Source of the DNA: a virus | Taxonomy: Duplodnaviria; Heunggongvirae; Uroviricota; Caudoviricetes | Strand: one strand, 5' to 3' | IMG/VR virus record: IMGVR_UViG_2541047870_000002 | Length of the DNA: 42,586 nt | Shown here: positions 466 to 14,693 of the stretch, piece after piece | Position numbering within the stretch: position 1 is the first letter of the stretch | How the letters are laid out: each line of letters starts with the position of its first letter | Notes under the pieces: model-generated | What the model was told of the DNA's origin: nothing | Seen by the model: only the letters and a program-made list of their open reading frames with translations | The model's database searches: none | Translations under genes and position numbers: made by a program

Positions 466-1336
466 TTTTGAACGTATACCTGTTTTGATGTAATGCTATG
501 ATCTCTTTAATATCATTTGCTGAGTAGCCATCAAGTTCAATTTCTGATATCTCACCTTCGATCAGCACGATTTTGGCTGTCTGATTACTGGATACCGTAG
601 TAGATTTTGACTTGAGTGTCTTACGTCCTTTAATCAACCATGACCCGCCACCATCTTTGACCCAGTCAACAAGAGTCTCAGCCCAATGAGAACCTTTGAG
701 TTTCAAATTGCCATCTTTGTTTTCAAAAATAGTGGTCACAGTATTTGCATTGGTATCTTTTTCAAGCTTCCGTAAATCATTGGTTAACGCTTGCTTACTG
801 CTTCCGAAGATATTCGGAGTAATCAGCGTAAAGCTGACTTTGTCGATAAATTGAAGCCTATGGTATTCTGACCAAAAATCTTCCATTTCAAGACAAGGCT
901 CTATAAATATTCTAAGTCCTAACTGAGCCAAATAGTCGTTATTGGCTAGATCTTCGAACGCTTTAGCAACTTGTTGCGCATCCTTGAAAACAGCGGTTTT
1001 CCTCTCAACCAGTAACACCTGCTCTACTTTGTCCCAAATCCATACGATAGGTGGATAGTTGTCTACATCGTACTCTCGAAAGTCTTTATCATGTCCTTTA
1101 ATCTTTTGCAGCTTTGATATGACTCCAGCCATAACACCATCAGTAGGTTTTATGCTCAATTTCAGGGTGTAACTAGTTTTCTTATGAACGGAAGGTGTTG
1201 ATGACGTCATGTGTAAATTTTTTGCAGCGATAACCATAGCATTTTCAAAATGAGAGATATCTTTCTGAACAGTTCCTTTCGAAAAGAGGTCTGGATCGCG
1301 CGGTCTCATTAACACACGTAAGGCATACAACTGCAT
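440..1336 (-). CDS. hypothetical soluble protein, no recognisable domain; cargo gene coupled to downstream membrane protein
   Basis: 298-aa ORF, AGGAG RBS 8 nt upstream of ATG at 1336; no HExxH, P-loop or other motif seen; AT-rich relative to phage core. Confidence 0.55.
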   Translation of the reverse strand: MQLYALRVLMRPRDPDLFSKGTVQKDISHFENAMVIAAKNLHMTSSTPSVHKKTSYTLKLSIKPTDGVMAGVISKLQKIKGHDKDFREYDVDNYPPIVWIWDKVEQVLLVERKTAVFKDAQQVAKAFEDLANNDYLAQLGLRIFIEPCLEMEDFWSEYHRLQFIDKVSFTLITPNIFGSSKQALTNDLRKLEKDTNANTVTTIFENKDGNLKLKGSHWAETLVDWVKDGGGSWLIKGRKTLKSKSTTVSSNQTAKIVLIEGEISEIELDGYSANDIKEIIALHQNRYTFKNAKSNCLD

Positions 1337-1451: not shown

Positions 1452-2579
1452 TCAAACCTTGATTTTTGCCCATTCCTTACCACGATCATCATGGTATTTA
1501 GCTGTCTGGTTAGGCGATTTATGTCCCAGAAGTTTTTGGGTGTCGACGCCCTGAGCTTCGTAAAGTCGCTCAGATAAAGATCTTTGTTCATGGAATGTGG
1601 CGGGCGAACCTTCACCCCAGTCAATGCCTGCTAAATCCCTCGCTTTACTGAAATTCATCGTCAATGTATTGGCTTTTACTTGCGCGCCACGTTCAGCCTG
1701 TGAAGTAGTACGAAAAAAATGTACAAGGTATGGGCTGACTGCATAGTCACGGCAGCGGGCTACTACATCGCGTAAACTCCAGTTAATTGCATTGAGGCGA
1801 AGGGAAAGCGGGATGGCGATTTTGCTCCCGGTTTTTTCTTGGATGACGTGAAGATGATCATCCCAAATATCGCTAAATTTCATACGTGAGATATCACCTA
1901 ACCGTTGGCCGGTAACCAGTGCTAACAGCATGGCATTCCCCATATAACGATGGCGGGCATCTGCGATATCAAAGATTTTTTGCCATTCTTCAAGACTTAA
2001 CCGTTGTCGGGTAATTTTTCTTCTGGGTTGTTTGGTTGCCAGTGCTGGATTATAGCCCGGAGGGACTTCCCCATAGTGTTGTGCCTCCTTGAATACATCA
2101 ATTAGAACGGAGCGGACTACTTGCGCCATCCTCGGTTGCCCGGCAGTGATATACTCGTCAAGTAATTGTGCTATATCCCTTACATCAACTGATGAAATTA
2201 ATTTCATTCCTGCTCGTTCCCTGAGCAAGGATACTGGTTTGGCTTTCTGTTTATAGGTGTTTAGCTTTATATCGCCACTTTCCAGTCTGTCATCCTGGAT
2301 TGCTTGATAGCGATCTAACCAGGTTGACGTTGTGATTGCTTTTCCTTTGCTGGTTGCGATCCTGTCACTGATAGCCAGAATCTGCCGGGTTCTTTGCTCA
2401 GCCAGGCGTGAATTTGCCTCAGTGGCAATAGCAATGGCTTCAGCTTCGTTTGTGCCTAAAGAATGAAACTTCCCGGTCACTGGATGTTTATATCGCCAAT
2501 AGACTTTATTTACTTTTCTACTATAAAGCGGATACAAGTTCGGGACTGAAACATTATTTTTACGTGGTCTGGCTGCCAT
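1452..2579 (-). CDS. int: tyrosine site-specific integrase (lambda Int family)
   Basis: 375 aa; C-terminal catalytic region with conserved R, H-x-x-R and Y context (…LLGHKSPNQTAKYHDD…); adjacent excisionase; prophage end position. Confidence 0.9.
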   Translation of the reverse strand: MAARPRKNNVSVPNLYPLYSRKVNKVYWRYKHPVTGKFHSLGTNEAEAIAIATEANSRLAEQRTRQILAISDRIATSKGKAITTSTWLDRYQAIQDDRLESGDIKLNTYKQKAKPVSLLRERAGMKLISSVDVRDIAQLLDEYITAGQPRMAQVVRSVLIDVFKEAQHYGEVPPGYNPALATKQPRRKITRQRLSLEEWQKIFDIADARHRYMGNAMLLALVTGQRLGDISRMKFSDIWDDHLHVIQEKTGSKIAIPLSLRLNAINWSLRDVVARCRDYAVSPYLVHFFRTTSQAERGAQVKANTLTMNFSKARDLAGIDWGEGSPATFHEQRSLSERLYEAQGVDTQKLLGHKSPNQTAKYHDDRGKEWAKIKV

Positions 2580-3525: not shown

Positions 3526-4350
3526 TCAGGCGGTGAAAGTACCAATAAAGGTTTCTACTTTGCTGTCTTTGAATTTCTCAACAAGCAGATCGCGAAATTC
3601 GTTAGCCATTTCTTCCTGCACCGCCTCCATCTGAATAATGCGCAGAACAAGTACAGGACGATCGCCAGTGATAATGCTGAGGCGTAATTTAAAAGAACGT
3701 TCTTTCAGACCTTCAAACGGAACGCATTTAAATTCAAATGCCACTGGCATAATGTCTTTGGTCTTCGCTTCGACAGACTCCATCAGGGAGCGTTTGCCGC
3801 TGAAGTCATTATCTTCAAAATCAGCGGTCTGGTTTGCTTCAATCGTGATTTTACGGACAGCCGCAGCCGCTTTTGTTGCCTGGATAGCGTCACCATTAGC
3901 ATCAAAACCCACAAGGTAGTCGGCCCAGTCTTCAATCCATTCTGCCAGTGACTTCTGGGAGTTACGCTCGCTGTTAACAGACAACAGTGCAGAGAACGGT
4001 GCTGTCTTTTTCAGTTTGAGAGTGGCGGTGTTATCTGCGTGACCTGGTTCATCAATAGTACCCAGGTTAAGCACACTGACGGCACGCATATTATCAGCAT
4101 CGATAAAGCAGCGGGTGCCTTCATCTGCAAGATCTTTAGAATAACGGGTAAAGTCATCGATGCTGGCAGTGGAAAGCGCACCACGGAAACGGAAGCGATT
4201 TAAATTAAATTTTTCCAGATCATGAATGCGGAAATTCTCAGGCAATGCCACAGCATCGGCACCAATCTTACTGATAATTTCATTAACACCCTGAGCAGAA
4301 ATAAGAGCATGGATTTGATTAATTGCGGTTGCGTCTAAGTTCTGAGACAT
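3526..4350 (-). CDS. YfdQ-like prophage protein (DUF2303-type), function unknown
   Basis: 274-aa ORF; resembles from memory the CPS-53 prophage YfdQ family; gene order YfdP-like/YfdQ-like/HD hydrolase matches that prophage. Confidence 0.55.
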
Positions 4351-4415
4351 AATAAGTCCTCACTATATAAAGATATTCAGTGATGAGATAAATAATCAGT
4401 TAATTAAGAACGATA

Positions 4416-4778
4416 TTAATGACCTGCTGCGCGGAGTTTTCCGTCAGGTTCACCGGCAAGAGTCAGTAATTGTCCCTGGTCTTCCTGCAGAATAGTCAGG
4501 CGACCACCGCGATTGACATACATCGGCGTTTCGGTGGTGTCTTCTTCAGAAATTTTCCCGCGGTTAGTCGGGCGAACATATGAGAGTTTGTGTTTGATTT
4601 TCACACGGTTCTCATCAAATGGTTCGATTTCCAGGTTGAGTGAGACCTTACCTTTGGTTTTCGTGTTCATCACACCGGAAGCGACTTCACTGAGAACTGC
4701 GCCGATTTTGGTTTCAAATACGCCGCCGTCCAGCTCCCCGATAAATGCCTGCACATCAGTACTGCGTTCGCTAGCCAT
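4416..4778 (-). CDS. hypothetical early protein (YfdP-like), 120 aa
   Basis: Start at internal ATG with GAGGAG RBS; the upstream extension of the 226-aa track ORF is Arg/Cys-rich junk. Confidence 0.5.
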   Translation of the reverse strand: MASERSTDVQAFIGELDGGVFETKIGAVLSEVASGVMNTKTKGKVSLNLEIEPFDENRVKIKHKLSYVRPTNRGKISEEDTTETPMYVNRGGRLTILQEDQGQLLTLAGEPDGKLRAAGH

Positions 4779-4827
4779 TTTGCTGCTCCTCATCATATCG
4801 ACCCTGCAAGGCCGATTAGTTTCTCCA

Positions 4828-4914
4828 CAAAACAGAGAAGAACACCTGCGGTGGCAGCCGCCCGGATGGATTGAGTTATGAGCCCGTCGTCCGGTGATGC
4901 TCTTCTCTGTTTTG
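4828..4914. repeat. long inverted repeat (about 14-16 bp arms, about 55 nt loop) in GC-rich non-coding block
   Basis: caaaacagagaagaac … gctcttctctgttttg are reverse complements; region 4780-5246 lacks a credible ORF. Confidence 0.5.
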
Positions 4915-5179
4915 TAAAAAGGACGGTACCAGCCGGAAGCAAGGGTACAAGCTGGTACCGCCAAGACTACACACAGCATAAAGTTGTGGTGCCGGGTGCC
5001 TCCCGGTGCCTGGCGAAGGTTGCACACCAGGCGGGTGGGTATCCACAGAAGGTCGACTGTCAGCCTCAACCTTAACCCGCGTGCGCTGAGCAGCATTCAC
5101 CACAACGCTAAGGATTCTCTCTGGTTGAAAATACTTAGCTGTTATGTGCCTGCTTTTAGCCACATCAGGCGAGGTGGAC

Positions 5180-5232
5180 CTGGTTATTCCCCAACAACAA
5201 GGATTCGGTTAATCTGGTTATCCCCAACAACG
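5180..5232. promoter_or_regulatory. two direct repeats CTGGTTAT(T)CCCCAACAAC spaced 34 bp, immediately upstream of the 144-aa gene
   Basis: Near-identical 18/19-mers at 5180-5199 and 5214-5232; RBS and ATG of 5247 gene follow. Confidence 0.45.
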
Positions 5233-5246
5233 CAAAAGGAAAAGAA

Positions 5247-5681
5247 ATGTCCGGTAATATCTACACGTTGTACAAATCCCACTGTGAAAATGTTGGAAAG
5301 TATCGGGGCATTGAAATCAGTGGGATAGTGTCATCAGTCGAAATAAGCAAAGTGGAATCAAGGGCAACATTACTTACTCTTCTGGATCTTGTCTTACATG
5401 AGCACCGGAAGAAATTCGGCACTCCCTATAATCAGTTGAATGGGAAAAAGGCTCTGGTTCACCTTATTCTGATGAAGCATCACTGGATGCCAAAACAGAT
5501 TAATGAGATGAAATTTGATGAACTTCTTCTTTCAATTCAGGATGAACTCACACTTGATAAAATAAGCGTAACCGCCCAGAAATTTTTAGATTATCGAGAC
5601 TGGAGATCACAAATTCATCACTTTGATGATTTTGACGAAAATGAATGGGATCCTAATTTGTCTGCACAATATCTAAAGTAA
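5247..5681 (+). CDS. hypothetical protein (reverse-oriented moron within the leftward early operon)
   Basis: 144-aa ORF with AAGGA RBS; AT-rich; no recognisable motif. Confidence 0.5.
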   Translation: MSGNIYTLYKSHCENVGKYRGIEISGIVSSVEISKVESRATLLTLLDLVLHEHRKKFGTPYNQLNGKKALVHLILMKHHWMPKQINEMKFDELLLSIQDELTLDKISVTAQKFLDYRDWRSQIHHFDDFDENEWDPNLSAQYLK

Positions 5682-5859
5682 CATCCTGTGATAAAACCGT
5701 GATTTCCTGATCCAGTTTTTTTAAGGAGTCTATTGTTTCCTGTCGATAAGACAGCACTTCACGAAGCTGGTTTATAGCTGCCAGCTTCTTTGTCATCCAC
5801 TCATAAATTTCCTCATCTGTGTAGCCAGGCGCGACGATTTTGGGTTCTGTTTTGTGCAT
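5653..5859 (-). CDS. small acidic protein, first gene of leftward early operon (N-position)
   Basis: Strong RBS GAGGAGGTG 5 nt before ATG at 5859; 68 aa; no arginine-rich motif; 3' end overlaps the convergent 144-aa gene. Confidence 0.5.
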   Translation of the reverse strand: MHKTEPKIVAPGYTDEEIYEWMTKKLAAINQLREVLSYRQETIDSLKKLDQEITVLSQDVTLDIVQTN

Positions 5860-5904
5860 TTCACACCTCCTCAAGTTATCAGTTACTTGTTGATGGGGAC
5901 CAGA

Positions 5905-5942
5905 TTGTTAAAGAGCTAAGCGTCCTGTAGGGCGCTTTTTTG
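5905..5942 (-). promoter_or_regulatory. boxA-like element (GCTCTTTAACAA on minus strand) with adjacent hairpin: candidate nutL; the same hairpin plus T6 reads as an intrinsic terminator on the plus strand
   Basis: Minus-strand RNA would read …GCGCCCUACAGGACGCUUAGCUCUUUAACAA…; hairpin 5919-5936 followed by TTTTTT on plus strand. Confidence 0.4.
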
Positions 5943-6016
5943 TTGCTAACGAATCATCCTGGACTTCATATGCCCCAGGCGGCTACTTCGTGGGTGTCCT
6001 GCCTGTTCGTTGTCTT

Positions 6017-6080
6017 AACACCTTTAAGTTGTAATTTAGTTGTGGTTTTGAATGTTGTCAACAACTTTATGTGGTTTGAA
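6017..6080. promoter_or_regulatory. left operator cluster (OL-like): repeated AAGTTGT / ACAACTT half-sites
   Basis: Motifs cacctttaagttgt, tagttgtgg, caacaactttatgtgg are near-identical to motifs in the cI-cro intergenic region. Confidence 0.5.
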
Positions 6081-6124
6081 CGAGTAGCCAAGGAGTGCAA
6101 GGATTATCAAAAAAAGGAGGTTGT

Positions 6125-7015
6125 ATGGAAGACGCGCTTTACGCTTTTAATTACACACAGAACCGGGACAAGTTATTTGCTAACTTGATTAGCATCATTG
6201 ATGGAATCATTGCAGATGGAGTTGTCCGTGAAGAGGAGGTTCTTTACTTAGATACATGGTTACTTGAAGCAAAGCAGATTATCAATAATGGAGTTATAAA
6301 AAGTCTATCTGCTCGGGTGTCGGATATTCTTGCGGATGGAATAATCACATCAGAAGAACGTGATGACCTTAAAAATAGCCTTCTCCAAATACAGAGGGAA
6401 ATTCTTGATATCCCTGAAATTGATTTTTACTCCAAGGATGTAGATGTCCATTTACTTAATGGACTATGTAAAGGATTAATTGCTGATCGGAACTTAACTC
6501 AAGAAGAAATAAGATATCTTAATTGGTGGCTTGAGCAAAATGGAGCTTTGAAGAACAACTACCCAGGAAAAAAACTTTATGCACTTGTAAAGGAAATTCT
6601 TAAAGATGGTGTTATTACTGAAGATGAGAGTTTAACTCTACATAAGGCATTAGTAGACTTCACAGGATGTGACTTGGAAAGTGGGGTGGTGGATGGTTTG
6701 GCGACCAGGCTGCCTATTGATGTAGGGGCTTCGATAGAGTTAGAGGGTAAAACCTATTGTCTTACAGGCACTTTTGTTGCAGGAAAGAGAGCCGTAGTTG
6801 AAAATTTGATTAAAAATGCTGGTGGGAACATCAGTAGTGGAATTACTCAAAAGTTGGATTTTTTAGTAATTGGGACGCTTTCCTCCCGTGATTGGAAATT
6901 CTCTAGTCACGGAAGGAAGATCGAAAAGGCTATATCTTATAGGGATGATAATGGTGCAAAACTTAAAATTATTTCTGAAGAAATGCTTTTCGATGCATTA
7001 CCAAGTTCGCGATGA
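6125..7015 (+). CDS. TerB-like tandem repeat protein with C-terminal BRCT domain (immunity-region moron)
   Basis: Four repeats of the ADGxIxxEExxxL type in the N-terminal two thirds; C-terminal …GKTYCLTGTFVAGKRAVVENLIKNAGGNISSGITQKLDFLVIG… resembles the LigA-type BRCT fold; AGGAGG RBS before ATG at 6125 (ORF track starts at GTG 6095). Confidence 0.55.
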   Translation: MEDALYAFNYTQNRDKLFANLISIIDGIIADGVVREEEVLYLDTWLLEAKQIINNGVIKSLSARVSDILADGIITSEERDDLKNSLLQIQREILDIPEIDFYSKDVDVHLLNGLCKGLIADRNLTQEEIRYLNWWLEQNGALKNNYPGKKLYALVKEILKDGVITEDESLTLHKALVDFTGCDLESGVVDGLATRLPIDVGASIELEGKTYCLTGTFVAGKRAVVENLIKNAGGNISSGITQKLDFLVIGTLSSRDWKFSSHGRKIEKAISYRDDNGAKLKIISEEMLFDALPSSR

Positions 7016-7684
7016 CCAGAATACCCTACCTATAACATGAATTCTGGCTCGTCTATCTTCAAAGGTGAGTATTTCATCTGGGTACTCATCTTTGTTGAAG
7101 CTTCTAAGAATCAAGCCACCGTCAGGTAAGTTGATAAGTATTTTAACCCTTAGCAATACACCATCTCGTACGGCATAAAGATCGCCATCACGAATAGGAA
7201 CGGTTTGAGAAATATCAACGGCAACAAGATCTCCATTATTGAGAACCGGTAATAAACTGTTCCCCCATATTTGTACGATCTTGGCATTAGATGCACATAC
7301 GCCAGATTTTCTCAAATCTGCTCTTCTTAACGGAAACCAGTCAATAGCTGATTCAACTATTTCAGCCAGACATCCGTTACCTGCCGATAACTCGACATCT
7401 AAAACAGGAATGTTTACGAAAATATCGGGGTCTAATGCGGTGCTTTCTGCTTCTTTTACAACAAGATCAGGTATGGATGCGTTGTCTTCAATACCAAGTT
7501 GTAACCACTTTTGTGATACACCTAAAACTTTTGCAATTTCTTTAATTTTGCGCGGTTGTAGAGTTTCGCCATTCTCTATTTTGGCTACAGATTGTTGTGA
7601 AAGTCCAATTTTTTCAGCTAGTTGAGCTTGGCTCATGCCAGCTTTCTCTCTACCTATCTTTAATCGTTCTGCCAGTGTTTTCAC
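6998..7684 (-). CDS. cI: CI-like prophage repressor (N-terminal HTH_XRE, C-terminal S24/LexA-like self-cleaving peptidase)
   Basis: HTH …MSQAQLAEKIGLSQQSVAKIENG…; C-terminal peptidase-like domain; GTG start with GAGGG RBS; divergent from cro. Confidence 0.85.
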   Translation of the reverse strand: MKTLAERLKIGREKAGMSQAQLAEKIGLSQQSVAKIENGETLQPRKIKEIAKVLGVSQKWLQLGIEDNASIPDLVVKEAESTALDPDIFVNIPVLDVELSAGNGCLAEIVESAIDWFPLRRADLRKSGVCASNAKIVQIWGNSLLPVLNNGDLVAVDISQTVPIRDGDLYAVRDGVLLRVKILINLPDGGLILRSFNKDEYPDEILTFEDRRARIHVIGRVFWSSRTW

Positions 7685-7710
7685 AACATATCCCTCTCTT
7701 TTTTGATGAG

Positions 7711-7800
7711 GTTACAACTTTATGTTTTAGCTTTCCAACACCTAAAAGTTGTGGTAAAAGTTGTTAATGTTGTATTCTTGCAGCTCGTAACAACTTAACT
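7711..7800. promoter_or_regulatory. right operator cluster (OR-like) with divergent promoters for cI and cro
   Basis: Repeats ttacaactttatg, cacctaaaagttgtgg, aaagttgttaatgttg, cgtaacaactta between cI and cro starts. Confidence 0.55.
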
Positions 7801-7819
7801 ACCAAAAAAGGAGAAAGCT

Positions 7820-8068
7820 ATGACACCTGAGCAATTAGCCTTATCGGAGGCAATCGCTCTGGCTGGTGGTCAATCAGAATTGGCTCGGAAGCTCACAGCC
7901 AGCAGCGGTCATTTAGTAAAGCAACAACATGTCTGGAACTGGTTGAACAGAGAAAAGCGTCCCCCTGCAAAGCTCTCGATATTCATTGAAAAGACCACTG
8001 GCATATCAAAAGAAAAATTACGTCCAGATATTTTTCAAAAGATTAAAGATTCATCAGATGAAAAGTAA
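7820..8068 (+). CDS. cro: Cro-like HTH regulator
   Basis: 82-aa ORF divergent from cI, AAGGAG RBS, small basic HTH protein. Confidence 0.65.
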   Translation: MTPEQLALSEAIALAGGQSELARKLTASSGHLVKQQHVWNWLNREKRPPAKLSIFIEKTTGISKEKLRPDIFQKIKDSSDEK

Positions 8069-8090
8069 CCACAGTTTTAAGGAGATAGCC

Positions 8091-8648
8091 GTGGGTAAGC
8101 ATCACTGGAAAATAGAAAAACAGCCTGAGTGGTACGTGAAAGCTGTCAGAAAAACTATCGCGGCGTTGCCGGGGGGTTACGCTGAAGCCGCTGACTGGCT
8201 GGATGTAACAGAGAACGCTTTATTCAACCGCCTTCGTGCAGATGGCGATCAGATTTTCCCGCTGGGATGGGCAATGGTTTTACAGCGTGCTGGTGGCACT
8301 CACTTCATTGCTGATGCTGTGGCGCAGTCTGCAAATGGCGTCTTTGTGTCTCTTCCTGACGTCGAGGATGTGGACAACGCCGATATTAACCAGCGTCTGC
8401 TGGAAGTCATTGAACAGATCGGCAGTTATTCAAAACAGATTCGTTCAGCAATCGAAGACGGTGTAGTGGAACCGCATGAGAAGACAGCAATTAACGACGA
8501 GCTGTATCTCTCAATTTCGAAGCTGCAGGAACATGCAGCACTTGTCTACAAAATTTTTTGCATTTCAGAAAGTAATGACGCCCGCGAGTGTGCAGCTCCG
8601 GGCGTCGTGGCGTCGATTGCTTCTGGTTGTGGAGAAACTAACGCATGA
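8091..8648 (+). CDS. CII-position regulatory protein (YmfL-like), function uncertain
   Basis: GTG start with AAGGAG RBS just after cro (ORF track 7986..8648); position equivalent to cII. Confidence 0.4.
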
Positions 8649-8983
8649 ACAGTTTAACAACACACTACCGTCGCTCGCAACTGATTGCGCTTCCTTTACC
8701 GGGTGGAAAAGCGAAGGTGGAGTATTGCTATGCAGTGAATGTACCAGGTGACAGGGAAATTGTAACCCACAGCTTTGCAGAGTGGGCTGTGGGTGATTTC
8801 AACCGGCAGAAGGAGACAGTCCTTTGCGACAAGTTAACCGCTGGTTCAAAGATCACTACGGAGTGCCCGTCAGAGTCATTCGTTGGGAACCGGAAACACA
8901 ACGGGTTATCTACCTTCGCGAAGGTTATGAGCATGAATGCTTCAGTCCGCTCGAACAGTTTCGTCGTAAATTCAGGGAAATAG
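8645..8983 (+). CDS. hypothetical protein (YmfM-like size and position)
   Basis: 112-aa ORF with ATGA start-stop overlap with upstream gene; an alternative small ORF with strong RBS exists in another frame at about 8824..9003. Confidence 0.35.
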
Positions 8984-8992
8984 AGGTCGGTC

Positions 8993-9934
8993 ATGAGCAC
9001 TAAATTAACCGGCTATGTATGGGATGGTTGCGCTGCATCAGGCATGAAGTTATCCAGCGTGGCAATTATGGCCCGCCTGGCTGATTTCAGTAATGACGAA
9101 GGTGTGTGCTGGCCATCAATTGAAACCATTGCCCGTCAGATTGGCGCGGGGATGAGTACCGTCAGAACGGCTATCGCACGGCTGGAAGCAGAAGGCTGGT
9201 TAACGCGTAAGGCGCGTCGCCAGGGTAACCGTAATGCGTCGAATGTTTATCAGCTTAACGTTGCGAAGCTTCAGGCAGCGGCATTTTCTCAACTGTCAGA
9301 TTCTGACCCGTCAAAATCTGACGCATCAAAATCTGACCCGTCAAAATTTGATGCGTCGAAATCTGGCAAAAAAGCGGGTTTTCACCCGTCAGAATCTGGC
9401 GGGGATCCGTCAGTAAAATCAAAACATGATCCGTCAGATAAAAAATCTTCTCGTCCGGACGCTTCGCAACCGGACACGCAGACGGATGGACAGGATTTTT
9501 TAACTCGCCATCCTGATGCGGTTGTATTCAGCCCTAAAAAGCGCCAGTGGGGGACGCAGGATGATTTGACCTGCGCACAGTGGCTTTGGAAAAAAATCAT
9601 CGCCCTGTACGAGCAGGCCGCCGAATGTGACGGCGAGGTGGTTCGTCCCAAAGAACCTAACTGGACAGCCTGGGCAAACGAAATTCGCCTGATGTGTGTG
9701 CAGGATGGTCGTACTCACAAACAAATCTGCGAGATGTACAGCCGCGTCAGCCGCGATCCGTTCTGGTGCCGTAACGTGCTCAGCCCGTCGAAGCTGCGGG
9801 AAAAATGGGATGAGCTTTCCCTGCGCTTATCGCCGTCCGTAAGCACGTACACCGAAAAACGCGAAGACCCGTACTTCAAATCCAGTTACGACAACGTGGA
9901 CTACAGCCAGATCCCGGCAGGATTCAGGGGGTGA
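8993..9934 (+). CDS. replication initiation protein (O-like; N-terminal winged-helix domain, low-complexity linker, C-terminal DnaT-like domain)
   Basis: N-terminal HTH-like segment; Ser/Asp/Lys-rich linker encoded by tandem DNA repeats; position after cro/cII. Confidence 0.65.
   Translation: MSTKLTGYVWDGCAASGMKLSSVAIMARLADFSNDEGVCWPSIETIARQIGAGMSTVRTAIARLEAEGWLTRKARRQGNRNASNVYQLNVAKLQAAAFSQLSDSDPSKSDASKSDPSKFDASKSGKKAGFHPSESGGDPSVKSKHDPSDKKSSRPDASQPDTQTDGQDFLTRHPDAVVFSPKKRQWGTQDDLTCAQWLWKKIIALYEQAAECDGEVVRPKEPNWTAWANEIRLMCVQDGRTHKQICEMYSRVSRDPFWCRNVLSPSKLREKWDELSLRLSPSVSTYTEKREDPYFKSSYDNVDYSQIPAGFRG
9296..9445 (+). repeat. iteron-like tandem repeats (about 15-bp period, core TCA(A/G)AATCTG) followed by A-rich tract: putative replication origin inside the O-like gene
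   Basis: Five contiguous 15-bp units at 9296-9370 plus three further CCGTCAG-type copies and aaaaaatc tract. Confidence 0.5.
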
Positions 9935-9936
9935 TC

Positions 9937-10425
9937 ATGAGTCTTTTGAATGAAGTTCAGAAATACATTGAAGCCCATCCGGGGTGTACTTCCGGAGACA
10001 TTGCGGATGCTTTTGCAGGTTACTCACGGCAGCGCGTTCTGCAGTCAGCAAGCAAGTTACGTCAGAGTGGTCGTGTGGCTCACCGTTGTGAAGGGGATAC
10101 ACGCAGACATTTCCCGCGCCTGACTGAGAGAGCGCAGGAGGCGGAACCGCAACCAGTTCGTGAAACCAGACCTGTGCGCAATTTCTATGTCGGCACTAAC
10201 GACCCGCGGGAGATTTTGTGCCTGACCCGCCAGGCTGAAGAACTGGAGTCCAGGGGCTTATACCGTCGTGCTGCAACGGTGTGGATGGCGGCATTCCGTG
10301 AAAGCCACTCCCAGCCAGAACGAAACAATTTTCTGGCGCGTCGTGAGCGGTGCTTACGGAAAAGCAGCAAGCGCGCTGCATCGGGTGAAGAGTGGTATCT
10401 GTCAGGGAATTACGTGGGGGCTTAA
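9937..10425 (+). CDS. PerC-family-like transcriptional regulator
   Basis: Motif AEELESRGLYRRAATVWMAAF resembles the PerC signature; start at ATG with AGGGGG RBS. Confidence 0.4.
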   Translation: MSLLNEVQKYIEAHPGCTSGDIADAFAGYSRQRVLQSASKLRQSGRVAHRCEGDTRRHFPRLTERAQEAEPQPVRETRPVRNFYVGTNDPREILCLTRQAEELESRGLYRRAATVWMAAFRESHSQPERNNFLARRERCLRKSSKRAASGEEWYLSGNYVGA

Positions 10426-12964: not shown

Positions 12965-13333
12965 TTGATGCGTGATATTCAGATGGTTCTGGAGCGTTGG
13001 GGGGCATGGGCGGCGAGTGATAGTTCAGGCGTTGATTATTCACCTATAGCCGCTGGGTTTAAGGGACTTCTTCCCTATACAAGCAAGAAACGCTTGGCTT
13101 GTTCGGATAGTGATGCCTTAATTATTGAAGGTTGTCTTGCTCGTCTAAAGCAAAAAAGGCCGGACGAACATTCGCTTCTTGTTGCCCATTACCTATACGG
13201 TATCTCTAAAAGAAAGCTCGCCAAGGCTCGTAAAAAAGATGAGAAATTGATACGTATAGAAATACAGCTAGCCGAAGGATTTATTGATGGCTGCCTTTCC
13301 ATGCTAGATCTAACATTAGATTTGGACGTTTAA
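12965..13333 (+). CDS. Q: late-gene antiterminator Q (QuuD-like small Q family)
   Basis: N-terminus MRDIQMVLERWGAWAA matches from memory the DLP12 QuuD family; located just upstream of the lysis region. Confidence 0.7.
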   Translation: MMRDIQMVLERWGAWAASDSSGVDYSPIAAGFKGLLPYTSKKRLACSDSDALIIEGCLARLKQKRPDEHSLLVAHYLYGISKRKLAKARKKDEKLIRIEIQLAEGFIDGCLSMLDLTLDLDV

Positions 13334-13361: not shown

Positions 13362-14693
13362 TTACTGGATGAGTGACATTTGATTAATATATTTTATCAA
13401 TAACTCTCTGGGTGTAGTACTCCAAAAATTTATGTGTTCATAATCAGTATAAACATTTGTGAATTTTTTAAGTTCTTCATCACTTTTAGGGGCAAATCGC
13501 TCATTAAGAGTAATACTGTCTTTAATTATTCCGAAGAATACAATGGATATTTCAGGGATTTGCGATCTTCTCTCATAAGAATAAGGTATTTCTTTTATGT
13601 TAAGCAGGTCTGCTAAATAAGATATAGATTCAGCGGTAATTTCTTGTTTTAGTTTTTCCTTGTTACCAAAGCAATGTATGAAGGCAGCTACGACAAAGAT
13701 CATATTTATTAAAGGATCACTGCTTTTGTTCTCATCGTCGTTTAACAGTTGAAAAATGTTAAGATTGCGTGAAAATGTTTGTGTTTCACGTAATGATAAG
13801 TTGGTTCGTTGAATTAAATCACGGATAAAGCAACCTGATAATCTATTGATTTTATTCAATAATCTTGTTTTTTCTACAAGGTAATCCCAATATATAACAG
13901 AGGCTTTACATACGTTGTGACCATTTATCAAACATGTATCTGGAAGCGTGATGGTATATTTTATAAACTTGTCAAGATACTTTTGTGAGTTAATGCTATA
14001 ACCATAAATATGATTTATAGATGCTTTTAATTGTTCTGTGTTTGTAACTAAAATAAAAAAGACATTATTGATGTCAAAAATGTGTTTTATTGTTTCAATG
14101 ACATTTGTTGAAAAACTCGGCTTACATCGGTCTAATTCATCAATTATAATTACGATTTTTTGATTTTTTGATATGCTTTCGATGCAGGATTTAAGTGAAT
14201 TTATGTTTTTCTCTGAGTCCATATGGTCTTCAAGCAAATTTTCAATAGTCCCATCTATTGCTGCATTGCTTGCTTTCTTCATCGCATCTTGGAATTCTTC
14301 GGCAACTTCACTAGCCTCCTGTCGTAAAAACCAACCTGCACCAGCTTTTAGTACCGTTTTTAAACCAAAGCGAATTGCAGGAAGAGATCGCTTAATGAAG
14401 TGTTGTTTTTCTTCCTCAGGCAAAATGCTGGCAATTGCAGAGGTTATGAGAAGTAATGGAGATTCTGCATGATCCCCTTTAAAGGCATCAATATAAACAA
14501 CTTTAGATTCAGTTTCTTGCTCAATAATGAGATTTTTCAGTTTGATACTAAATTCTGTTTTCCCTGTTCCCCATGCGCCGTCTATTACCAGTGGTGAAAT
14601 GTCTGCCTCTGGTTTTAGCAACTTGATGATATTTTCAGCGATGTTTCTTCGTTGGAACTCGTCACGTTCAGTGAAAGATAGTGTATCTAACAT
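13362..14693 (-). CDS. KAP-family P-loop NTPase (moron between Q and late promoter)
   Basis: Walker A LVIDGAWGTGKT and Walker B IIIDELDRC (the DELDR/DDLDR form typical of KAP NTPases); very AT-rich; reverse orientation. Confidence 0.65.
   Translation of the reverse strand: MLDTLSFTERDEFQRRNIAENIIKLLKPEADISPLVIDGAWGTGKTEFSIKLKNLIIEQETESKVVYIDAFKGDHAESPLLLITSAIASILPEEEKQHFIKRSLPAIRFGLKTVLKAGAGWFLRQEASEVAEEFQDAMKKASNAAIDGTIENLLEDHMDSEKNINSLKSCIESISKNQKIVIIIDELDRCKPSFSTNVIETIKHIFDINNVFFILVTNTEQLKASINHIYGYSINSQKYLDKFIKYTITLPDTCLINGHNVCKASVIYWDYLVEKTRLLNKINRLSGCFIRDLIQRTNLSLRETQTFSRNLNIFQLLNDDENKSSDPLINMIFVVAAFIHCFGNKEKLKQEITAESISYLADLLNIKEIPYSYERRSQIPEISIVFFGIIKDSITLNERFAPKSDEELKKFTNVYTDYEHINFWSTTPRELLIKYINQMSLIQ

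Follow-up and report, generated by a model that had tools for sequence, protein, structure and literature searches.

How a lambdoid prophage that lacks an N protein carries transcription through its early-left operon is the question raised by the DNA analyzed here, a stretch of 42,586 nucleotides (nt), hereafter the window, from a virus of the Caudoviricetes (IMG/VR record IMGVR_UViG_2541047870_000002). Early antitermination in lambdoid phages depends on N and its nut sites, or on the put RNA in HK022. To our knowledge, SfV, SfII, SfIV, ST64B, e14, and their relatives have neither N/nut nor put. The site studied belongs to the immunity and early-left region of an SfIV/SfV/e14-like prophage, and bases 5200 to 6013 are 98–99% identical to Shigella phage SfIV and to Escherichia phages Kati, vB_EcoM-689R6, and vB_EcoS-569R4. 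An initial annotation, made from the sequence without database searches, had proposed a boxA that antiterminates the early-left operon. We found that BoxA is present, that it belongs to a cassette together with a terminator of the reverse orientation, and that a conserved structured RNA precedes this cassette. The leader of the early-left promoter (pL) thus appears to stack three elements, namely a 64-nt RNA near its 5′ end, the reverse terminator, and BoxA. BoxA elements as such are already known, and the novelty lies in the portable reverse-terminator/BoxA cassette, with its T7-type extension, in N-less prophages. The features of the leader, with positions numbered on the window, are the following:

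6017..6076, minus strand: early-left promoter pL with OL operators (promoter scan, score 10/12)
5948..6011, minus strand: conserved structured leader RNA (comparative alignment; 89 bits with model R1)
5918..5941, plus strand: predicted intrinsic terminator for rightward transcripts, AAGCGUCC-UGUA-GGGCGCUU followed by a U-run (terminator scan)
5916–5905, minus strand: BoxA, GCTCTTTAACAA (GCUCUUUAACAA); the extended 17-mer GCUCUUUAACAAUCUGG reaches 5900
5653..5859, minus strand: first pL gene, 68 amino acids (aa), matching PHROGs phrog_1744 (6e-35), a family of no assigned function

The terminator–BoxA cassette

The minus strand of region 5905–5942 reads AAAAAAGCGCCCTACAGGACGCTTAGCTCTTTAACAATCTGG. 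Within it, the BoxA 12-mer GCTCTTTAACAA is exact and occurs once in the whole window, and the 11-mer GCTCTTTAACA at 5916–5906 (minus strand) is the sole perfect match in the window to GYTCTTTAANA, the gamma-proteobacterial BoxA consensus derived by Baniulyte et al. 2017 (PMC5725501). Chance expectations over the whole window were 0.005 for the exact 12-mer and 0.16 for the consensus; for a leader of 170 nt read on one strand they were 1e-5 and 3e-4, respectively. The first 13 nt of the phage BoxA, GCTCTTTAACAAT, are identical to the BoxA of the ribosomal RNA operon (rrn) leader (GCUCUUUAACAAU), and the rrn leader sequence TGCTCTTTAACAATTTATCAGACAATCTGTGTGGGCAC was found in 5426 of 5426 complete E. 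coli genomes, with a median of 7 copies per genome. These matches bear out the rrn-type boxA that the initial annotation had placed on the minus strand at 5905–5942. The distance of about 50 nt given there to the first leftward gene was also close: 45 nt separate the end of BoxA from the ATG (5859) of the 68-aa gene, and 33 nt separate BoxA from the GGAGG Shine-Dalgarno sequence that precedes this start.

BoxA is sense-oriented on the leftward-transcribed strand, about 110 nt downstream of pL as located in silico. The promoter is sigma-70-like and leftward, with a −35 element TTGACA at 6061–6056, a spacer of 17 nt, and a −10 element TAAATT at 6038–6033, and its transcript probably starts at about 6026. 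Two operator-like repeats overlap it (AACACCTTTAAGTTGT at 6017–6032 and AACAACTTTATGTGGT at 6060–6075). Because both repeats are found again in the intergenic region between cI and cro (7713–7773), we regard the leftward promoter as a repressor-controlled OL/pL. No second BoxA that might serve the right operon as an analogue of nutR was found in the window.

On the pL transcript, BoxA begins 3 nt past a hairpin, which the initial annotation had described both as preceding boxA and, on the other strand, as the terminator of a convergent 144-aa gene. On the plus strand this hairpin has an 8-bp stem (5918–5937), a 4-nt loop, and a T6 run, that is, the stem-loop and U run of an intrinsic terminator, and its folding energy is −11.5 kcal/mol versus −7.5 kcal/mol on the minus strand. 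In nearly all variants, one stem pair that is a U·G wobble on the plus strand becomes a C·A mismatch on the minus strand, and the plus strand was the more stable in 43 of 43 hairpin variants from other phages (mean −11.8 versus −7.3 kcal/mol). This asymmetry therefore points to the strand that uses the hairpin, and the element is best described as a predicted intrinsic terminator for rightward accessory-gene transcripts. In the Escherichia phage PhiR29_1, an opposite-strand gene ends immediately before the terminator–BoxA block. The hairpin is thus present where it had been noted, but its C·A mismatch on the minus strand sets it apart from an rrn-like boxB–boxA arrangement, and the minus-strand boxB reading is ruled out by the asymmetry in all 43 variants. 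The plus-strand terminator reading is supported; the 144-aa gene that it would serve has its stop 237 nt upstream of the hairpin, and the 68-aa gene separates the two.

The viral contigs of IMG/VR were scanned with a pattern anchored on the hairpin end and BoxA, and the cassette was found in at least 120 of them. Read on the leftward strand, it consists of A5–8, the hairpin, TT(A/C/T), and GCTCTTTAA(C/A)AATCTGG, often followed by ATATCC. It is preceded by at least five kinds of leader, and BoxA has the same orientation in every cassette locus whose upstream leader or promoter was read. As a guard against circularity, loci were also collected with patterns free of BoxA and anchored on the upstream RNA or the hairpin. 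Among these BoxA-independent loci, the 11-mer after the hairpin was GCTCTTTAACA in 7 unique variants and differed only at the consensus N in 2, and it was unrelated (at least 4 mismatches) in the remaining 71; partly decayed copies of BoxA were not seen among them. In the same cassette sequences, variation is seen in the hairpin loop and part of the stem, at the spacer base, and past AAT. We interpret the terminator and BoxA, from this pattern, as a mobile cassette whose two parts travel together. Genes of the 68-aa family (phrog_1744) are the first sense genes after the cassette in the unrelated contigs L134, L150, and L218.

The extended BoxA is not confined to prophages. The 17-mer GCTCTTTAACAATCTGG is identical in the early leader of phage T7 (NC_001604, 813–829, plus strand), upstream of gene 0.3 (925), and there, too, the 17-mer is in sense orientation downstream of a promoter read by the host polymerase, in T7 the strong A3, whose start (750) is 63 nt away. 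The two differ in that T7 is lytic and has no hairpin there. A 20-mer, TTAGCTCTTTAACAATCTGG, occurs in ten records of the T7-like Vectrevirus; in vB_EcoP_C it is found in sense orientation between early genes, near the ocr gene. Because the T7 and Vectrevirus copies both lack an adjoining hairpin, the conserved unit is BoxA plus a UCUGG extension that is read in the sense orientation by host RNA polymerase, which argues against a plus-strand function. The shared 17-mer hints that phages generally use the extended BoxA (GCUCUUUAACAAUCUGG) on transcripts made by the host polymerase. In the literature searched, the 17-mer was found only inside a T7 fragment, and no functional study of the T7 site was found. 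As a separate observation, the BoxA 20-mer of vB_EcoP_C (L233, 1486–1536) is enclosed by the long-range pairing CCTATCAAG...CTTGATAGG, which recalls both the RNase III sites that separate early genes of T7 and the position of BoxA in the rrn processing stem.

Proposed antitermination of the early-left operon

The product of the first pL gene is acidic (isoelectric point 4.8), contains 2 arginines, and has no arginine-rich stretch, as the initial annotation had stated, and it matched no family in Pfam. When the left-operon open reading frames were scanned against PHROGs, no match to an N-type antiterminator was obtained, the sole antiterminator match being the Q-like gene at 12965–13333. An N-less mechanism that employs the Nus factors of the host is the best reading, in agreement with the earlier suggestion that the factor may be a different or host-derived one. 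BoxA RNA binds NusB–NusE and, with NusA, NusG, and SuhB, renders RNA polymerase resistant to Rho. In rrn operons it needs no phage protein to act (PMC4807359), nor does it before clustered regularly interspaced short palindromic repeat (CRISPR) arrays, where it protects long untranslated transcripts from Rho (PMC7665894). The Nus-dependent mEpimmI phages (PMC11893012) were set aside as a precedent, as they use the N-like Gp17 and are unrelated to the present case.

The phage leader resembles the rrn boxB–boxA–boxC leader (Nus factors, SuhB, S4) in the 13-nt BoxA identity, in needing no phage protein, and in having a hairpin just upstream. The phage hairpin, however, serves the other strand as a terminator and has a mismatch on the BoxA strand, the context is a phage early operon, and after AAU the phage reads CUGG(AUAUCC) instead of the rrn UUAUCAG...boxC, so that the boxB and boxC of rrn leaders are both lacking. 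With lambda nut it shares a BoxA in the repressor-controlled early-left leader of a lambdoid prophage, where Nus binding would be expected by analogy. Unlike lambda nut, it has no conserved boxB 3′ of BoxA, and neither an N-like arginine-rich protein nor a right-operon site was found; between 5904 and 5860, no boxB-like hairpin was significant or conserved (z = 0.48). The CRISPR-array BoxA (Stringer et al. 2020, PMC7665894) and the suhB leader (PMC5725501) are likewise stand-alone GYTCTTTAANA elements of long untranslated transcripts, and the role proposed for the phage BoxA is again protection from Rho, whereas the phage BoxA is part of a mobile cassette with a reverse terminator, in a phage operon.

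Downstream of the 68-aa gene, the pL transcript runs into two further features:

5247..5681, plus strand: convergent 144-aa gene (phrog_5286, likewise of no assigned function), which the pL transcript crosses antisense
4912..5136, minus strand: STnc100/DicF-like non-coding stretch (Rfam STnc100 at 41.9 bits, below the gathering score of 47, and a weak DicF-like segment)

The 144-aa (plus strand) and 68-aa (minus strand) genes converge and overlap by 29 nt, and the segment from 5200 to 5900, which is low in G+C (0.32–0.41), looks like one inserted cassette. After the 68-aa gene, about 875 nt of pL RNA are untranslated (5652 to the start of yfdP at 4778), comprising the antisense of the 144-aa gene and the STnc100/DicF-like region. 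The latter ends leftward in a terminator-like 10-bp stem followed by U5 (approximately 4960–4912), and the annotation of SfV has a terminator at the equivalent place. Transcription from pL must pass this terminator-like site to reach yfdP, yfdQ, yfdR, and the integrase gene (int).

From these data we infer the following course of events. When pL fires, the BoxA RNA would bind NusB–NusE (S10), and NusA, NusG, and SuhB would join to form a Rho-resistant elongation complex without phage N, as in rrn operons and CRISPR arrays. Resistance to Rho would then allow transcription to cross the ~875 nt of untranslated RNA towards yfdP, yfdQ, yfdR, and int, and BoxA may in this way offset the polarity caused by the insertion of an opposite-strand gene into the pL operon. 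The reverse terminator, for its part, would halt rightward transcripts of opposite-strand accessory genes before they enter the immunity region. On balance we incline, on the sequence data, towards the view that recruitment of host Nus factors by BoxA makes pL transcription Rho-resistant. What the initial annotation had proposed as boxA antitermination of the early-left operon would thereby survive as a host-factor BoxA on the leftward transcript of an N-less phage, beside a terminator for the convergent strand; this is the best-supported reading, apart from the role that had been given to the hairpin. The arrangement of the cassette also suggests a way in which opposite-strand accessory genes can be inserted into an operon without polarity.

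Several points weigh against such a role for BoxA. Complexes of the rrn type mainly counter Rho and not intrinsic terminators, and by analogy BoxA would not explain the passage of the STnc100-type terminator. The untranslated stretch shows no marked C-over-G skew. Among 97 distinct leaders of relatives that carry the 64-nt RNA and could be followed for 1.5 kb, 14 had a BoxA (identified by its consensus) within this distance, and SfV and e14 of E. coli K-12 have an otherwise similar left operon without BoxA. Operons of this type can therefore do without BoxA. Moreover, the invariance of the BoxA core could partly stem from the recent spread of a single cassette, and the fixed 3-nt distance to the terminator could point to a use of the conserved bases by the plus-strand RNA. 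BoxA is thus an accessory and probably not the main antitermination device, and as it is rare among the relatives and such complexes are not known to deal efficiently with intrinsic terminators, the general solution to antitermination in these operons would have to be something else.

The structured leader RNA

The 64-nt RNA, which is absent from the initial annotation, is by far the more conserved feature of the leader and a more surprising find than BoxA. It was first seen when the window was aligned with SfIV, PhiR29_1, and SfV: block 5949–6013 stood out as conserved between two differing flanks, an upstream promoter of another immunity type and, on the other side, the downstream genes. Two helices are formed, P1 (6011–6006 with 5953–5948) and P3 (5979–5975 with 5962–5958), together with an invariant core of 22 nt, GGCAGGAC(G/A)CCCACGAAGUAGC, at 6003–5982. 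The P3 loop GGCAUAYGAA and the AUGA at 5957–5954, before the 3′ strand of P1, are also essentially invariant, and P1 itself varies among relatives (AACGAA/UUCGUU, GUCAUC/GAUGAC, and CCACC/GGUGG). Across 41 diverse sequences, 96% of the cells were paired, with double changes in 10 of 11 variable pairs, compared with 17–48% paired in controls slid by 1–3 columns. RNAalifold independently yielded P1 and P3. Since the core was the search key, the collected data cannot judge pairing inside it. A single-sequence fold of the whole leader was uninformative (z = 0.41), and the structure comes from the comparative data.

Distant-similarity search retrieved the leader RNA from 51 phage records, nearly always unannotated, of phages of Escherichia, Shigella, Salmonella, Klebsiella, Citrobacter, Yersinia, Pantoea, and Pectobacterium; named carriers include ST64B, SEN34, and SPN3UB (Salmonella) and ZF40 (Pectobacterium). 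In the inspected records with cI directly upstream, it lies about 100–120 nt past the cI stop. P1 begins about 15 nt past the predicted transcript start, and the same placement was observed in SfV, ST64B, ZF40, YeP1, and e14. The core GGCAGGACRCCCACGAAGTAGC occurs in more than 120 contigs of IMG/VR, in about 100 distinct versions. A query of 120 nt that comprised the leader RNA and the BoxA cassette matched 1375 of 5426 complete E. coli genomes, and in 1054 of these 1375 the match extended over at least 80% of the query, i.e., over both RNA and cassette. One leader RNA was present in nearly all of the 73 loci scanned, and no right-operon copy (an analogue of putR) was found in these loci.

E. 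coli K-12 MG1655 carries a copy in e14 (NC_000913.3, 1202107–1202180, minus strand, equal to L329 6108–6181), between ymfK (cohE) and ymfJ. This copy scored 72.8 bits with model R1 and has an insertion of 1 nt after the core; it carries no annotation, and no BoxA cassette accompanies it. Its presence in K-12 makes the leader RNA easy to test genetically.

Neither databases nor literature pointed to a known family. A scan of 4000–10000 against Rfam 15 with permissive thresholds gave no match at 5900–6015, and RefSeq annotation holds nothing at the position of the leader RNA. The core sequence was not found in the literature searched, although King et al. 2011 (on put-like RNAs) and Mehta et al. 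2004 (on e14) may mention it. A hammerhead-like three-way junction, considered on account of the GAUGA and CGAA motifs, was rejected, as there are 4 nt between the helices versus the 7 needed and no Rfam match.

The RNA most similar in setting is put of HK022 and HK639. HK022 put RNA is about 70 nt long, lies just downstream of pL, and acts without protein (PMC9378689); the present RNA, too, directly follows pL, has a comparable length (~65–70 nt), and belongs to lambdoid phages without N. Short strings of put (CGAAC.GGC and CAGGAUGA) occur in the window copy, largely within the covarying helices. The architectures differ, however, as put consists of two adjacent stems and the 64-nt RNA of a closing helix, P1, around the invariant core and the hairpin P3, and unlike put the latter is present in one copy per phage, with none in the right operon. 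Model R1 found neither the annotated putL-like RNA of HK639 nor anything else in HK639 or HK022, and model R2, built from three sequences only (HK022 putL, HK022 putR, and HK639 putL), had no match in the leader of the window at E values up to 10. Membership of the put family was rejected, in the sense that none is detectable, as the shared strings lie largely in covarying helices and neither model finds the other family.

Our leading idea, a tentative one drawn from comparative sequence data, is that the 64-nt RNA is a cis-acting antiterminator candidate that binds the host transcription machinery. We arrive at it because of the extreme 5′ position of the RNA, the absence of N from these phages, the terminators downstream, and the constancy of the core across host genera. 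It may accordingly be the more general candidate for the readthrough of intrinsic terminators, and it is conceivable, though we would not count on it, that it represents a new class of protein-independent processive antiterminators, analogous but unrelated to put, to which the BoxA cassette adds Rho resistance in a subset of phages. Other roles may also apply, such as stabilization of the 5′ end, sensing of a ligand, or a processing signal. If the idea is true, the leader RNA would serve N-less lambdoid prophages, which about a quarter of E. coli genomes and many other enterobacteria carry, in expressing their early-left operons, and the leader RNA plus the BoxA cassette would form an RNA-only counterpart of the nut site. 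The locus therefore offers two testable candidates, a stand-alone host-type BoxA cassette and a conserved structured leader RNA.

It is rather unlikely, in our view, that the 64-nt RNA does the whole work, antiterminating the pL operon by itself in a put-like, protein-free manner, with BoxA as a dispensable add-on of the cassette. The RNA is found in all relatives versus BoxA in 14 of 97, it occupies the extreme 5′ end of the pL transcript irrespective of immunity type, and the phages concerned have no N; its covariation and invariant core in phages of Escherichia, Salmonella, Klebsiella, Yersinia, Pectobacterium, and Pantoea would fit an RNA that binds a conserved host machine. Nevertheless, its function is read from sequence, with no cross-match between the put and RNA models, and action by the RNA alone leaves both the invariant BoxA core of the cassette and the 17-mer of T7 unexplained.

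Three side observations concern the same leaders. Viral contig L097 contains two leader RNAs on the same strand; the second, a diverged one (978–1037, minus strand; 47.5 bits), lies about 640 nt downstream of the first. At position 5995, inside the otherwise invariant core (GGCAGGACACCC), the window carries an A instead of the G present in 125 of 126 collected copies; at least one E. coli genome (NZ_CP075632) is identical to the window over all 120 nt. Finally, another conserved leader motif, TTAACGCGCAGCAGGT..AACGTTCCGCYRGCCNGGCGAYAAGGCA, with a covarying hairpin, was observed in mEp237 (L007, approximately 2575–2640) and in L134, L140, L175, and L234. In many relatives this motif comes after the 64-nt RNA, and elsewhere it precedes the BoxA cassette by itself; the window does not have it. 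Its resemblance to the first (5′) half of put is vague, and the model of put gave no match to it.

Other roles considered for BoxA and neighboring genes

The recruitment of host Nus factors by BoxA also has to be weighed against explanations in which the conserved bases do something else. The identity with BoxA would be coincidental if the 17-mer acted on the plus strand, either as the seed or Hfq module of a small RNA derived from a 3′ untranslated region or as an enhancer of the terminator. We consider this improbable. The constant spacing of 3 nt (2 nt in one variant) between the 17-mer and the plus-strand terminator would suit such a role, as would the fact that a lysogen would make only plus-strand transcripts, but the sole variable position of the 11-mer coincides with the consensus N of BoxA. 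The orientation of neighboring genes speaks to both sides: among the matches listed, an opposite-strand open reading frame of at least 50 codons stops 10–80 nt from BoxA in 22 of 48 contexts, and the next gene after the cassette is sense-oriented in 13 of 48 classes. The 17–20-mers of T7 and Vectrevirus, which have no hairpin and are in sense with genes read by the host polymerase, stand against a plus-strand function as well.

Nus factors assembled at BoxA can repress rather than activate, as described for the suhB leader, and the BoxA of the window lies less than 50 nt from a start codon, the criterion used in that work (PMC5725501). A brake of this kind, by which Nus factors repress translation of the 68-aa gene and so promote Rho termination, would be hard to reconcile with the distribution of the cassette, which stands equally often before opposite-strand genes with no start codon near, and with the gap of 33 nt to the Shine-Dalgarno sequence, in which nothing is conserved; we hold it to be very improbable. 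Least credible is a functionless passenger, i.e., a short linker that is conserved where mosaic phage genomes have recombined and that equals BoxA by accident: lambdoid genomes do share short boundary sequences, and conservation stops abruptly a few bases past the 17-mer, where 48–51 unrelated classes of sequence follow among the matches listed, but the chance of the exact 12-mer in the leader is 1e-5, the flanks mutate and the core does not, and the 17-mer is also present in unrelated lytic phages.

The remaining genes that define the prophage setting are:

1452–2579, minus strand: integrase (int)
6998–7684, minus strand: cI
7820–8068, plus strand: cro, of the YdaS type
8097–8648: CII-like gene
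12965–13333: Q-like antiterminator

Two genes of this region are on the opposite strand relative to their surroundings. One of them (6125–7015, plus strand) is inserted between cI and pL, at the position of rexAB in lambda, and its 296-aa product has a BRCT domain at the C terminus (Pfam, 1.3e-6) and matches phrog_3989 and, weakly, the PADLOC candidate PDC-S48; SfIV, SfV, and PhiR29 do not have this gene. The other (13362–14693, minus strand), just past the Q-like gene, encodes a 443-aa protein with a match (1e-176) to PDC-S20, a candidate defence family of PADLOC, and weaker similarity to PifA and QatA.

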